From the NCBI GenBank assembly GCA_045113495.1, contig JBGUIZ010000003.1:18665-82664 (forward strand): DNA of 64,000 bases. The letters run 5' to 3'. Positions within the stretch are counted from its first letter, which is position 1; each line of letters opens with the position of its first letter. Source of the stretch: Bacteroidaceae bacterium (GTDB lineage Bacteria; Bacteroidota; Bacteroidia; Bacteroidales; Bacteroidaceae). Below the pieces are notes generated by a model, which did no database searches, was not told where the DNA came from, and worked only from the letters and a program-made list of their open reading frames with translations. Shown here in pieces: positions 15,499 to 40,539 of this stretch. Made by a program: the position numbers and the translations under genes.

Positions 15499-15579
15499 GC
15501 GGGCGTGGCGGAATTGGTAGACGCGCTAGACTTAGGATCTAGTATCTTAGATGTGTAGGTTCGAGTCCTATCGCCCGTA
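15499..15579 (+). tRNA. tRNA-Leu (anticodon UAG)
   Basis: Cloverleaf folded by hand. Acceptor GCGGGCG/CGCCCGT; 3-bp D stem with a GG loop; anticodon stem CTAGA/TCTAG with loop CT-TAG-GA; long variable arm (ATCT/AGAT); T arm with TTCGAGT loop; discriminator A. No encoded CCA. Confidence 0.9.
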
Positions 15580-15589
15580 CGAAAATAAA

Positions 15590-38443: not shown

Positions 38444-38451
38444 TAACTTTG
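38444..38451 (+). promoter_or_regulatory. Orphan -7 box TAacTTTG in the M20 / ATPase intergenic region
   Basis: Exact TAnnTTTG match with no ORF downstream before the terminator at 38559-38601. Confidence 0.35.
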
Positions 38452-38558
38452 TACCGCGATTACGAAAAGCGGTTAACCCGCGTAAGTGATCATTAATAGT
38501 TAGATAGTCCTTTTTATAAATATCATTGGGTATCGTTTGATGTGAATCACGCGCCGCC

Positions 38559-38601
38559 AAAAAAAGAGAAGAGTATGCGCAAGCAGACTCTTCTTTTTTT
38601 T
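38559..38601. terminator. Strong bidirectional-type intrinsic terminator 39 nt upstream of the ATPase start codon
   Basis: A7 run, stem AGAAGAGT/ACTCTTCT (8 bp, extendable by A-T pairs), 12-nt loop, T8 run. Confidence 0.7.
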
Positions 38602-38639
38602 ATACTTTTACCGGAAAGAAACCATAAACCTGAATAGTT

Positions 38640-39461
38640 ATGGAGAGCAGTTACGCCGATGGCATAAGCCGTATAGAGATCAATTCCCTGTGGGGAAGAA
38701 AGCATATCGTATGGGAACTCCGCCCCGATGTCAACATACTTAGCGGTGTGAACGGCACAGGTAAGAGTACTATACTGAACAAGACGGTGGCACGTCTGGA
38801 TTATCTGTCGGGTGAGAGCAAGGACGAGAATCCGGAGGTATCCATAGACTTCTATCCTGACGGTTGCAGGAAATTGCGTTATGACGTGATACGCAGTATA
38901 GACCGTCCGCTCATGCACAGCAACCTGCTTGAGAAGATGAGTGACAAGAGCGTGGTGTCAGAACTTGACTGGCAGCTTTACAAACTGCAGCGCCGTTATC
39001 TGGACTATCAGGTCAACATAGGCAACCGTACCATCCAGCTGCTGACATCGGGCGATCCCTCCAAGATAAGCGAGGCGCAGAATATTGCGGCGCCCAGAGT
39101 CCGTTTCATGGACTTTATGGATGAGCTGTTTGCAGATACCGGTAAGAAGATTGTACGTACAAGCAACGAGATACTGTTTGACCAGTTCGGTTCCACGCTG
39201 TTGCCGTACAGCCTCTCATCGGGCGAGAAACAGCTGCTTGTAATAATGCTAACCACACTGGTTCAGGACATGGCACCTTGTGTACTGCTTATGGATGAGC
39301 CGGAGATATCACTGCACATAGAGTGGCAGCAGCAGCTCATACAACGTGTCCGTTCACTCAATCCCAATGTCCAGATAATCATGACTACCCATTCACCGGC
39401 TCTCATCATGGACGGCTGGATGGATAACGTATATGATGTTGAGGATATAACCGTCAAGTGA
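38640..39461 (+). CDS. Minimal ABC/SMC-type (AAA_21-like) ATPase; putative AriA-like partner of the DUF4435 protein
   Basis: 273 aa. Walker A LSGVNGTGKST, signature-like LSSGEKQ, Walker B VLLMDEPE, H-loop TTHSP. Confidence 0.8.
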   Translation: MESSYADGISRIEINSLWGRKHIVWELRPDVNILSGVNGTGKSTILNKTVARLDYLSGESKDENPEVSIDFYPDGCRKLRYDVIRSIDRPLMHSNLLEKMSDKSVVSELDWQLYKLQRRYLDYQVNIGNRTIQLLTSGDPSKISEAQNIAAPRVRFMDFMDELFADTGKKIVRTSNEILFDQFGSTLLPYSLSSGEKQLLVIMLTTLVQDMAPCVLLMDEPEISLHIEWQQQLIQRVRSLNPNVQIIMTTHSPALIMDGWMDNVYDVEDITVK

Positions 39462-39474
39462 GGGGCTTGGTGGA

Positions 39475-40539
39475 ATGAAGAGGCTCACCGATAACATTAA
39501 CTCCCGGTATTTTGAGGCGGCCGACAGGCTCTTGCCCGGCAAGCGTCGTGGCCGTATCATAGCCTTTGTGGAGAGTTATGATGATGTCTCTTTCTGGCGT
39601 GTCCTATTGGATGAGTTTGAGACTCCTGATCACTATTTCCAGATAATGCTGCCCAATCGTGGCGGCTTGACCAAAGGTAAGAAATCGGCCCTGCGTTCAT
39701 GCATCGAGCATGACGGATTGGGTAAGAGCCTGATTGCGTGCGTGGACAGTGATTATGACTGGCTTCTGCAGGGGGTGACCCAGACATCACGCGATATCAT
39801 ATCCAATCCCTTTGTGATACAGACATACGCATACGCCATAGAGAACTATCAGTGCTGGGCGGGTAGCCTGCATCAGGTATGCGTGCAGTGTACACTTAAC
39901 GATCACCGTCTGATTGATTTCCCGGCTTTCATGGAACTCTACTCAAAGGCTGTGTATCCGTTGTTTGTGTGGAATGTGTGGTTCTACCGCAAGAAAAAGC
40001 ACAATGAGTTCAGTATGCAGGACCTGAGTATTGACATCAGGCTTAAAAGTGTGGATGTACACCGTCCTCAAGCATCCATAACCGCCGTTCAGGAAAAAGT
40101 GGCCCGAAGAGTCCGCTGGCTGGAGAGTCATTACCCGGATGCCGTTCCTGAGGTTGCGGAACTCAGAAAGGAACTGACCTCAATGGGAGTAACGGAAGAG
40201 AGTACGTATCTGTTCCTTCAGGGCCATCATCTGGTGGAGAACGTGATCCTTAAACTACTGCTGCCGGTATGTACTGTCCTGAGGCAGGAGCGTGAGGCCG
40301 AGATCAGGCGTTTTGCAGTGCATGACCAACAGTATCGTAACGAGATAAGCGCATACCAGCATAGTCAGATGAGTCTGACTGAGGCTATACGCAAGAACAC
40401 GCATTACCGCGGCTGTTATCTCTACCAGCGTATGCGTGATGACATGAGCCGCATGTTATCTATGCTTCCAGAAAGCGGGGGTGAGAATAAGCAGGACACT
40501 GAAGACCTCCAGTCGGCCCATCAGCATCAGGAAGGTTGA
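39475..40539 (+). CDS. DUF4435 / TOPRIM-like (OLD-family-type, AriB-like) protein
   Basis: 354 aa with IIAFVESYDD (acidic Glu motif), ACVDSDYD (DxD) and TYAYAIENY, followed by a helical C-terminal half. The last 28 codons are antisense to trkH. Confidence 0.75.
   Translation: MKRLTDNINSRYFEAADRLLPGKRRGRIIAFVESYDDVSFWRVLLDEFETPDHYFQIMLPNRGGLTKGKKSALRSCIEHDGLGKSLIACVDSDYDWLLQGVTQTSRDIISNPFVIQTYAYAIENYQCWAGSLHQVCVQCTLNDHRLIDFPAFMELYSKAVYPLFVWNVWFYRKKKHNEFSMQDLSIDIRLKSVDVHRPQASITAVQEKVARRVRWLESHYPDAVPEVAELRKELTSMGVTEESTYLFLQGHHLVENVILKLLLPVCTVLRQEREAEIRRFAVHDQQYRNEISAYQHSQMSLTEAIRKNTHYRGCYLYQRMRDDMSRMLSMLPESGGENKQDTEDLQSAHQHQEG

Follow-up and report, generated by a model that had tools for sequence, protein, structure and literature searches.

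A two-gene cassette in a Bacteroidaceae genome, encoding a compact ABC ATPase (g1) and a putative DUF4435/TOPRIM nuclease (g2), is vertically inherited and chromosomally fixed and is not a mobile defence island. The cassette lies in a window of 64,000 nucleotides on contig JBGUIZ010000003.1, the window being the whole stretch of DNA that was analysed. We give an even chance to the reading that the pair belongs to the PARIS family as a compact, vertically inherited form that became fixed on the chromosome and would function as an ATP-gated TOPRIM nuclease. The finding bears on annotation, as the pair would be automatically labelled 'PARIS' in some very abundant gut and rumen bacteria and yet evolves in the manner of core genes.

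The ORF listing of the window contains the co-directional gene pair described in the original prediction, encoding 273 and 354 aa with a gap of 13 nt, and the flanking genes are also those that it named, an M20 peptidase gene upstream and trkH-trkA-dxs downstream in convergent orientation (Table 1). The GC content of about 0.50 over g1-g2, against 0.49-0.57 in the flanks, agrees with the earlier impression of no obvious compositional shift. A feature absent from that prediction is that the last 84 nt of g2 (40456-40539) run antisense to the 3' end of trkH; depending on the species, this antisense overlap measures 84, 51, 39, 38 or 29 nt, or is lacking. Both ORFs are intact and separate genes in 25 of 25 genomes, with an intergenic gap of -4 to 25 nt in 24 of them and of 94 nt in the remaining one (L071). 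These gap sizes, together with the correlation between the pairwise distances of g1 and g2 (r = 0.945), indicate that the two genes form one predicted operon and co-evolve.

Table 1. Coordinates of the features of the g1-g2 locus within the window.
Feature	Position	Strand	Basis or description
A7 - hairpin - T8, bidirectional intrinsic-terminator-like element	38559..38601	+	sequence and fold; ends 38 nt before the g1 start codon
TACTTTTA, possible Bacteroides-type -7 promoter box of the g1-g2 operon	38603..38610	+	7/8 positions of TAnnTTTG
g1	38640-39461	+	ORF, 273 aa (about 31 kDa), compact AriA-like ABC ATPase
Walker A / P-loop GVNGTGKST, g1 residues 36-44	38745..38771	+	conservation in alignment A2
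Helical hairpin insertion, g1 residues 101-163, in place of AriA IS1, coiled coil and IS2	38940..39128	+	model
ABC signature LSSGEKQ (192-198), Walker B VLLMDEPE (215-222), D-loop/HIEWQQ helix (224-231), H-loop TTHSP (249-253)	39213..39398	+	invariant in alignment A2
g2	39475-40539	+	ORF, 354 aa, AriB-like DUF4435/TOPRIM nuclease (predicted)
TOPRIM catalytic core, g2 residues 27-128	39553..39858	+	acids E33, D37, D91, D93, E123 and GKK motif (K69, K70)
All-helical C-terminal domain, g2 residues 129-330	39859..40464	+	pLDDT above 90
Disordered g2 tail, residues 331-354, and stop codon	40465..40539	+	pLDDT below 50; inside the trkH antisense overlap

The terminator-like element upstream of g1 folds with a 15-bp outer stem (z = -3.2 for the 188-nt leader) and is kept in the 10 closest species, among which base changes close to the loop are compensatory. 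It probably shields g1-g2 from the upstream M20 gene. The Bacteroides -7 promoter has the consensus TAnnTTTG, and the candidate promoter region upstream of g1, ATACTTTTAC, is kept among close relatives. Rfam searches of this region and of the whole window returned a single tRNA-Leu, and no known leader RNA was found upstream of g1.

All motifs quoted earlier for g1 are found in its translation (LSGVNGTGKST at residues 34-44, LSSGEKQ at 192-198, VLLMDEPE at 215-222 and TTHSP at 249-253). Its description as a minimal ABC ATPase is borne out by Pfam matches to AAA_21 (1.4e-18, 68.4 bits) and AAA_15 (4e-15, 56.7 bits), and the PADLOC AriA model PDLC04164 spans the protein end to end (6.1e-56, model positions 5-251 of 253). 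Conservation was assessed in alignments of 40 g1 sequences (A2) and 33 g2 sequences (A3), with homologues 51-94% identical; residues G36, N38, G39, G41, K42 and T44 of Walker A are invariant in A2. Judged from its sequence, the ABC ATPase g1 is catalytically intact. The label of ABC transporter ATPase, which some sources attach to it, was rejected: the ABC_tran score (27.9 bits) is barely over the 25-bit cut-off, the NCBIfam transporter models fall far below their cut-offs and no permease gene adjoins g1 in the ORF listing. More generally, no NCBIfam model exceeded its cut-off for g1 or for g2.

Among PDB sequences, g1 matches E. coli AriA (8ux9) best, the match being confined to the N and C lobes. 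Residues 9-48 and 191-264 of g1 are the sole stretches that align to AriA (6-45 and 365-436), the second of these covering the C-lobe motif region and including HIDWQE, the AriA helix that touches AriB and carries the contact residues D401 and E404; this helix reads HIEWQQ in g1. Between the lobes of AriA lie IS1 (122-180, trigger recognition), IS2 (242-289, trimer-of-dimers assembly) and a coiled coil (PMC11464382). Compared with E. coli AriA, g1 lacks about 177 residues, which make up IS1, IS2 and the greater part of the coiled coil, and the original prediction was right that g1 is far shorter than AriA (273 aa vs 464 aa in the solved E. coli chain) and has no long coiled coil between its lobes. 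A short helical hairpin of roughly 55-65 residues takes that place in the AF2 model (pLDDT 82), with helices at 108-135, 140-149 and 151-163. No other stretch of g1 is as conserved as the first inserted helix (101-135, SELDWQLYKLQRRYLDYQVNIGN), which has a block conservation of 0.84-0.96 over residues 101-130 and a dN/dS of 0.05, compared with 0.16 over residues 136-165. The sensing pores of canonical PARIS are poorly conserved, and the observation that they vary whereas the inserted helix is so constant counts against a PARIS reading. PtuA and AriA are the top Foldseek matches of the g1 model, and its nearest structural neighbours are defence ATPases without exception. The compact ATPase family comprises 317 clusters (50% level, E <= 1e-30), mostly of 270-350 aa.

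The motifs reported for g2 are likewise present in its translation (IIAFVESYDD at 28-37, ACVDSDYD at 88-95 and TYAYAIENY at 117-125). Its assignment as a DUF4435/TOPRIM protein holds, with intact catalytic acids, a Pfam DUF4435 match of 1.2e-46 (159.9 bits, the model reaching residue 271) and matches to the PADLOC AriB models PDLC02983 (4.9e-55) and PDLC04165 (3.7e-33). The five TOPRIM acids and G68, K69 and K70 are invariant among the 33 g2 homologues of A3. In E. coli AriB the two-metal TOPRIM acids are E26, D30, D88, E90 and E122 (PMC11464382), and the acids of g2 have the same spacing, the equivalence being assigned through spacing and a phage AriB alignment and not through structural superposition. 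The core of g2 aligns with a P2-phage AriB (BLASTP 5e-6; also hhalign). AriB K60/K64 hold the tRNA anticodon loop; the GKK motif of g2 lies at the offset of these residues and, when g2 is aligned to a phage AriB, falls on the KK of that protein. The protein is predicted to be a catalytically intact, metal-dependent DUF4435/TOPRIM nuclease and, by analogy, its substrate is probably RNA.

The helical C-terminal domain attributed to g2 is confirmed in the AF2 model (overall pLDDT 84), in which residues 129-330 are all-helical; this domain has no alignment to phage AriB and no PDB neighbour in Foldseek. The tail that follows shows a dN/dS of about 2 with a dS of 0.09, which indicates that its sequence is held by trkH and not by g2. 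Searches of PDB sequences with g2 and with its 33-sequence profile recovered no AriB, OLD or GajA and returned spurious helical matches only, the g2 model had no Foldseek match in the PDB at E <= 0.001, and PHROGs holds no family for g2. The lack of detectable similarity to solved AriB, by sequence profile and by Foldseek, was counted against the PARIS reading. A genuine phage AriB also misses the solved AriB by sequence, and thus DUF4435 proteins may be too divergent for g2 to be compared with solved AriB by PDB sequence or Foldseek searches.

The operational rule for PARIS (Rousset 2022, DefenseFinder; PMC9122126) calls for adjacent genes with AAA_15 at >=32 bits or AAA_21 at >=27 bits, plus DUF4435 at >=27 bits. 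The pair exceeds these thresholds (AAA_21 68.4, AAA_15 56.7 and DUF4435 159.9 bits) and its best defence HMMs are AriA and AriB, in keeping with the PARIS-type architecture proposed for it. The accompanying suggestion of an uncharacterised subtype was not supported insofar as the type is already catalogued: the AriA model of PADLOC-DB v2 matches g1 end to end, and 'PARIS' is among the systems that DefenseFinder-based papers report for B. thetaiotaomicron and B. fragilis, which may or may not be the same pair.

The phylogenetic distribution of the pair is revealing of its mode of inheritance. In an unbiased scan baited with TrkA, the pair adjoins trkH in 23 of 23 species representatives, these being the species with sufficient sequence, at TrkA identities from 95% down to about 73-76%. 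The pairwise distances of g1/g2 track those of TrkA and TrkH (r 0.87-0.91), and the dN/dS of the pair (0.06-0.08) equals that of these two neighbours. No segment exceeds a dN/dS of 0.2, the trkH-overlapping tail of g2 aside, and diversifying selection is not seen. The gene upstream of the pair varies by sub-lineage, being an M20 peptidase, GH35, capsule-export genes or MatE. Fixation, vertical divergence and low dN/dS form an evolutionary pattern that is atypical for defence and counts against a defence reading.

A homologous pair occupies another housekeeping site in the Bacteroides group, between EamA and MscS, in 74 of 75 metagenome loci. The sole MscS locus without the pair (L174) carries an IS insertion beside MscS on a short contig and does not represent a clean absence. 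The pairs at the two sites are about 59% (g1) and about 50% (g2) identical, and because this divergence extends the within-clade trend against TrkA/TrkH, it suggests that the pairs descend from the common ancestor of these genera. The original prediction had described the cassette as an island, a claim contradicted by its presence in 23/23 species, its co-divergence with the flanks, its housekeeping-level dN/dS and this second conserved site; the comparison of presence and absence across relatives found the pair conserved as core genes at trkH within the clade, the very outcome which that prediction had named as speaking against it.

By its tblastn percentages the ATPase looked hypervariable across the Bacteroides loci, but this was largely gone after proper alignment; a few residual mosaic ATPase alleles, on short contigs, may be assembly chimeras or genuine exchanges of the N lobe. 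Matches labelled 'plasmid' in P. massiliensis and B. finegoldii were discarded as a sign of mobility, these sequences being chromosome fragments ('plasmid 41' and 'plasmid 93') with housekeeping genes. The mislabelled matches led to Bacteroides orthologues, which appear to exist in tractable species (a B. finegoldii pair, a named B. nordii ATPase and the 'PARIS' calls for B. thetaiotaomicron and B. fragilis) and would make the choice between immunity and a host function directly testable.

No integrases and no neighbouring defence genes were found across the five kinds of sampled context, where the sole mobile-element genes are those of the IS insertion at L174; the prediction of no integrase or transposase by the cassette is borne out by these contexts. 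In the phage and viral collections no relatives of g2 or of the pair were found, the viral_contigs profile scan being limited by peptide patterns, and g1 alone gave weak or partial ABC-type matches in 9 records of the phage collection. The compact ATPase of Fusobacterium phage Fnu1 was rejected as a counterpart, as it is only 24% identical and its partner is a 136-aa unknown protein and not DUF4435. A literature search for DUF4435 in Bacteroides, or for a tested compact or Bacteroidales PARIS, found no relevant report.

If the pair is a compact PARIS-family member, its mode of action may be sketched on the model of the E. coli system. The ATPase g1 would bind the nuclease g2 and keep it inactive until a signal-triggered, ATP-dependent conformational change releases or activates it; the freed g2 would then cut RNA, most likely specific tRNAs, and so halt translation in an abortive-infection or stress response. 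Since g1 is without IS1, IS2 and the bulk of the coiled coil, it would probably act as an ATP-sandwich dimer (A2B1 or A2B2) with a different sensing surface, and not as an A6B3 propeller; the same absence makes the earlier proposal of an activation logic different from that of AriA plausible. The inserted helix, being the most conserved element of g1, may sense a conserved signal of host origin in place of variable phage proteins.

Much of this evidence can also be read without immunity. The pair may be an exapted or ancestral housekeeping nuclease complex with a routine cellular task other than anti-phage defence, such as the maturation, turnover or quality control of stable RNA (cf. RNase M5) or ATP-dependent DNA repair (cf. 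RecF-RecR), which PARIS-type tools would flag merely through shared domains; we regard this as a substantial but minority possibility. Clade-wide fixation at housekeeping positions (23/23; 74/75), vertical co-divergence at the dN/dS of TrkA/TrkH with no diversifying segment, and five kinds of context free of phage or defence-island association, with one IS insertion only (L174), all argue for it, as does the divergence between the trkH and EamA-MscS sites, which suggests descent from the common ancestor of the genera; the best-conserved element being the inserted helix would fit a constant cellular ligand. However, all experimentally characterised ATPase + DUF4435 pairs are anti-phage systems (PMC9122126, PMC11464382), the defence models AriA and AriB score best among the HMMs with no NCBIfam housekeeping family reached, and the nearest structural neighbours of g1 are all defence ATPases. 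Moreover, the pair has moved within the chromosome on at least three occasions among the lineages, and is thus without a conserved functional neighbourhood.

Two further readings carry very little weight. The view of the original prediction, a recently acquired and isolated defence island of an unrecognised compact PARIS/AbiL subtype, is highly improbable: the PARIS-like domain architecture, the unusually short ATPase and the upstream neighbour that differs among sub-lineages are in its favour, but the pair stands beside trkH in 23/23 informative species with distances that co-vary with the flanking genes, neither a compositional shift nor mobility genes accompany it, the PADLOC model covers the type end to end and the AbiL models are not its best match. 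It is even harder to credit that the pair is the decaying, non-functional remnant of a former PARIS whose ATPase was stripped of its sensor and oligomerisation modules, given ORFs intact in 25/25 genomes, a dN/dS of 0.06-0.08, invariant catalytic residues and a compact form that constitutes a large family of 317 clusters, even though g1 lacks about 177 of the residues found in E. coli AriA and the g2 tail is without protein-level selection.

A wider and tentative proposal, which we hold to be less likely than not, is that the pair constitutes a core Bacteroidaceae nuclease complex and not mobile immunity, in which an ATP-gated TOPRIM RNase (or DNase) would survey or process a conserved host nucleic acid or process. 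Were this true, the 'PARIS' calls of DefenseFinder and PADLOC in gut Bacteroidaceae would largely represent a housekeeping or 'guard-of-self' module, and phage-borne PARIS would be an embellished derivative, or the ancestor, of a minimal chromosomal machine. Either the pair is a rare case of an immune module that became fixed long ago throughout the family, or it puts the PARIS architecture to a purpose other than immunity, and a natural minimal AriA without the trigger-recognition and hexamerisation insertions could separate the nuclease-gating parts of the system from its sensing parts.

The PARIS system of E. coli B185, for which structures are available (8UX9, 8V45-8V49; Rousset 2022, Burman 2024, Deep 2024), resembles the pair in its order of an AAA_15/21 ABC ATPase gene and then a DUF4435/TOPRIM nuclease gene. 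Common to both are the ATPase motifs, the HI(D/E)WQ helix after the D-loop and the five-acid TOPRIM spacing. PARIS systems as a whole fall into 11 clades (Burman 2024). Unlike E. coli AriA, g1 has no IS1, no IS2 and little of the coiled coil, and thus the A6B3 propeller and its pores could not form in the same way; the C-terminal domain of g2, in turn, does not align with AriB. The salt bridges of PARIS join AriA D401/E404 to AriB R28/R31, whereas the equivalents in the pair, taken from the g1-AriA alignment and the g2 motif offsets, are E228 (acidic, kept) and Q231 in g1 and Y35 and V38, which are not basic, in g2. The replacement of R28 and R31 was counted against the PARIS reading. E. coli PARIS occurs patchily on P4 satellites and in P2 hotspots, in contrast to the chromosomal, fixed and vertical pair described here.

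Modules of this kind have precedents among core genes. RecF, an ABC ATPase that has no long coiled coil, is partnered by the TOPRIM protein RecR. RNase M5 is a TOPRIM RNase with an AriB-like active site (PMC12409363). Both are offered as analogies only, no specific sequence relationship to the pair having been detected. Lactococcus AbiL (AbiLi/AbiLii) is a two-gene abortive-infection system of an ATPase and a DUF4435-like protein from the same superfamily. The proposed affiliation with AbiL was nevertheless not upheld, as g2 matches AriB models only, with no match to AbiLii models at E <= 1, and the B. finegoldii orthologue scores 2.4e-14 with AbiLi vs 5.6e-58 with AriA. OLD and GajA hold both catalytic modules in one chain, and the pair may be regarded as a minimal version of such an enzyme divided between two proteins. 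That earlier comparison survives in the possession of the same two modules and fails in that g2 is DUF4435 and not Toprim_OLD, to which it gives no match, the GajA model also not being among its best matches; unlike the pair, OLD/GajA enzymes have a dimerisation domain inside the ATPase and DNA as their target.

PtuA of Septu and of retrons Ec78/Ec83/Eco7 provides the top Foldseek matches of g1 (E about 1e-9) and, in the C lobe, strong matches to PADLOC models and PDB sequences. Both belong to the same clade of ABC ATPases used to gate a nuclease, although PtuA, unlike g1, has 400-550 aa with long insertions and is partnered by the HNH nuclease PtuB and not by DUF4435. The closest mobile relative found is the P2-hotspot PARIS of Escherichia phage vB_EcoM-813R9 (ON470620.1), which sits between phage tail and baseplate genes and consists of a 419-aa ATPase and a 283-aa DUF4435 protein. 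This phage pair matches the same PADLOC models as g1/g2; its ATPase is 44% identical to g1 in the N lobe and 39% in the C lobe, and its TOPRIM core aligns with that of g2 motif for motif. About 150 extra residues separate the lobes of the phage ATPase, and its PDLC04164 match falls in two separate stretches.

The compact ATPase gene (g1) and the nuclease gene (g2) run in the same direction, 13 nt apart in the ORF listing of the window. Their coordinates in the original prediction were exact, all of the motifs quoted there were found in the two translations, and the neighbours were correctly named: an M20 peptidase gene lies upstream and trkH-trkA-dxs lies downstream in convergent orientation. 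On the opposite strand, the 3' end of trkH covers the final 84 nt of g2 (40456-40539); the closest species share an overlap of 84 nt, and elsewhere it is shorter (51, 39, 38 or 29 nt) or absent. GC content is ~0.50 across the pair and 0.49-0.57 in the flanks. Both ORFs are intact in all 25 genomes compared, with a g1-g2 junction that varies between a gap of 25 nt and an overlap of 4 nt, apart from one outlier of 94 nt (locus L071). It seems well supported that the two genes make up a compact PARIS-family module, co-expressed as an operon and encoding an ABC ATPase and a TOPRIM nuclease that are both intact.

Features of the pair, its upstream spacer and the only RNA gene found by Rfam/ARAGORN in the 64-kb window
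Feature	Position	Strand	Description
g1	38640-39461	+	ORF, 273 aa
g2	39475-40539	+	ORF, 354 aa
A7 - 15-bp hairpin - T8 element	38559-38610, including the following -7-like box		ends 38 nt upstream of the start codon of g1
Second -7-like box	38444-38451		TAACTTTG, in M20-g1 spacer
Small conserved hairpin	~38528-38558		GGGTATCGTTTGATGTGAATCACGCGCCGCC, in M20-g1 spacer
tRNA-Leu (anticodon TAG)	15499-15580		Rfam/ARAGORN

The HMM searches proposed with the original prediction gave strong matches for both proteins: g1 to Pfam AAA_21 (1.4e-18) and AAA_15 (4e-15), and also to SMC_N, and g2 to DUF4435 (1.2e-46) over nearly the full model. Among the models of PADLOC-DB v2, g1 covers the AriA model PDLC04164 (253 positions) from end to end (6e-56), and the sole matches of g2 are two AriB models (4.9e-55 and 3.7e-33); the NCBIfam search yielded no match to either protein above the cut-off. 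The original PARIS detection rule calls for adjacent genes, AAA_15 or AAA_21 plus DUF4435 (PMC9122126). Because the Pfam scores of the pair exceed the thresholds of this rule, and because DefenseFinder-based papers have already reported 'PARIS' in B. thetaiotaomicron and B. fragilis, the pair qualifies by its sequence as PARIS under the operational definition and is within reach of existing tools.

The spacer between the M20 gene and g1 is AT-rich and 295 nt long. Its A7-hairpin-T8 element was not picked up by a consensus terminator scan; comparison of the 10 closest species shows a conserved stem in which changes near the loop are compensatory. After the element comes TACTTTTA, a sequence similar to a Bacteroides -7 box. 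The element probably serves as a bidirectional terminator, shielding the pair from the M20 gene, and the candidate promoter of the pair would lie just after it. The second -7-like box, the small hairpin and the terminator-like hairpin could together delimit either a leader or a separate short transcript of ~150 nt; an Rfam search of the spacer elements at 38444-38558 gave no matches.

The distribution of the pair is that of a resident chromosomal locus. Identity to g1 declines smoothly among its homologues, from 94% to 64%; nearly all of them are of 272-288 aa, and some are found unchanged on more than 100 contigs; the pair adjoins trkH-trkA-dxs in contexts at 84%, 76% and 65% identity. In an unbiased scan, species-representative genomes were baited with TrkA rather than with the pair, which was then scored by tblastn. 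Both genes were found directly beside trkH in 23 of 23 loci with enough sequence and a TrkA at least 76% identical, all from uncultured rumen or hindgut Bacteroidaceae of cattle, buffalo, yak, reindeer and horse. In the same scan Bacteroides, Phocaeicola and Mediterranea (TrkA 70-74%) lacked the pair at the trkH site, one MAG excepted. The two proteins diverge in step with TrkH and TrkA: their pairwise distances correlate with those of the two flanking proteins at r = 0.87-0.91, as tightly as TrkH does with TrkA (r = 0.91), and g1 and g2 correlate at r = 0.945. The dN/dS ratios of the pair (g1, 0.064; g2, 0.082) resemble those of TrkH (0.091) and TrkA (0.051), and region-wise values in the folded parts are all at most 0.2 (g1 51-80, 0.19; g1 136-165, 0.16; g2 191-240, 0.16). 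Other contexts are also of housekeeping type, with capsule-export genes or MatE near the trkH site and an additional UvrA/Exo_endo_phos...MFS site. The original prediction therefore stands as to a PARIS-family ATPase/nuclease pair (Pfam, PADLOC) and falls as to an island between housekeeping genes: universal conservation at the site within the clade, of a kind that it had itself named as contrary evidence, effectively excludes recent acquisition.

A second site class occurs in the Bacteroides group. B. finegoldii carries a pair of ~50% identity, flanked by genes for an EamA/DMT transporter and an MscS channel; Jilunia laotingensis shares this arrangement. The ATPases of this group are mutually 85-97% identical (120 clusters). 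A second unbiased scan, of metagenome contigs baited with MscS, found the pair in 74 of the 75 loci with enough upstream sequence. In the remaining locus (L174, 205-2018) an IS element, encoding a 405-aa DDE transposase and a 157-aa IS200-like TnpA, occupies the usual place of the pair directly upstream of MscS, on a short contig that ends 200 nt beyond. The ATPase frame is shifted or truncated in 3 of the 74 loci (L147, L163 and L157); in L147 the EamA gene next to it is broken too, which points to assembly indel errors rather than true pseudogenes. Mosaic ATPase alleles occur on two short human-gut Bacteroides metagenome contigs (L170, 378-1283; L167, 2822-3724). In L170, residues 1 to ~118 share only ~45% identity with neighbouring alleles and look like the type in the window, the remainder is 100% identical, and the breakpoint lies inside the ultra-conserved helix; such alleles may reflect real exchange of the N-lobe between lineages or chimeric assembly. 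Between the two site classes, identity is ~59% for g1 and ~50% for g2, a divergence that continues the within-clade trend against TrkA/TrkH and fits descent from a common ancestor and later relocation.

Links to mobile elements were sought in several ways. As originally predicted, no integrase or transposase gene accompanies the pair in the window, and none, nor any other defence gene, was found in the sampled contexts except for the L174 insertion. No confirmed relative of g2 or of the pair was found in the phage collection or, in a scan by peptide patterns and the g2 profile, in IMG/VR. Two tblastn 'plasmid' matches, PLSDB 'plasmid 41' of B. finegoldii (NZ_OY725943.1) and 'plasmid 93' of P. 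massiliensis (OY726067.1), bear ordinary chromosomal genes (alpha-2-macroglobulin, MeaB, TonB receptor) and appear to be mislabelled chromosome fragments. For g1 alone, 9 phage records gave ABC-type matches, all of them weak or partial. In Fusobacterium phage Fnu1 (locus L102, 2983-4145), the gene for a compact ABC ATPase of 258 aa, with 24% identity to g1 over 93% of its length, overlaps that for a 136-aa protein of unassigned function; the two may form a different phage-borne minimal ATPase-effector pair.

The g2 structure is predicted with good confidence (pLDDT 84): a TOPRIM fold at the N-terminus is followed by an all-helical domain (129-330) and then by a disordered tail. Residues E33, D37, D91, D93 and E123 are invariant in 33 of 33 homologues (51-91% identical), with the same spacing as the AriB metal ligands E26, D30, D88, E90 and E122. 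Also invariant is a GKK motif (K69, K70); its offset is that of K60 and K64 in AriB, two lysines that grip the anticodon loop of the tRNA, and it aligns with the KK of AriB from a P2-like phage. The TOPRIM core aligns to this phage AriB (BLASTP 5e-6; also hhalign); no alignment to it was found for the helical domain. Neither the g2 family profile nor Foldseek of the model reached the solved E. coli AriB, but a genuine phage AriB also fails to reach it by sequence, so that the missing match is not taken as a sign of a different fold. AriB R28 and R31, which form salt bridges with AriA, correspond to Y35 and V38. The residues encoded in the trkH overlap are disordered in the model and show a dN/dS of ~2 with a very low dS (0.09), indicating a sequence constrained by trkH and not by g2; the tail is thus a read-through extension and no functional part of the nuclease.

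By analogy with PARIS, g1 would gate g2, a signal leading to ATP-dependent release or activation of the nuclease, which would probably cut RNA; tRNA is the leading candidate because the active site and lysines are AriB-like. The chances that the pair is a defence-type gated RNase seem to us evenly balanced. A non-immune core function is possible, if somewhat doubtful: the pair is fixed across genera, diverges congruently with its neighbours at housekeeping dN/dS, has a highly conserved 'sensor' insertion in g1 and, save for one IS insertion, has no link to mobile elements, yet precedent favours a defence role for such pairs. This pattern is that expected of a housekeeping gene, or of a guard watching a conserved host feature.

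The compact ATPase is best compared with E. coli AriA (8ux9, 464 aa), its best PDB sequence match. Only g1 9-48 and 191-264 align, to AriA 6-45 and 365-436, leaving 142 residues where AriA has 319. In AriA this interval holds IS1 (122-180), for trigger recognition, a coiled coil, and IS2 (242-289), through which the trimer of dimers is assembled (Burman et al., PMC11464382). The AlphaFold2 model of g1 (pLDDT 82, pTM 0.82) predicts an ABC head whose sole insertion is a short helical hairpin, H108-135 packed against H140-163. No other block of g1 is as well conserved as the inserted helix (101-135); sensing pores are poorly conserved in canonical PARIS. The AriA helix HIDWQE is retained as HIEWQQ. 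Foldseek groups the model with AriA and with PtuA ATPases from Septu and retron systems, all of them proteins of 300-550 aa. The compact form is recurrent, with 317 clusters at E <= 1e-30, mostly of 270-350 aa, in an exhaustive search over representatives clustered at 50% identity. Since IS1, IS2 and the coiled coil of E. coli AriA are replaced by a short hairpin, the A6B3 propeller of canonical PARIS is unlikely, and a dimeric head is the simplest expectation. The PARIS of the P2-like E. coli phage hotspot is itself canonical, with an ATPase of 419 aa that aligns with the 273 aa of g1 in the two lobes only, at 44% and 39% identity.
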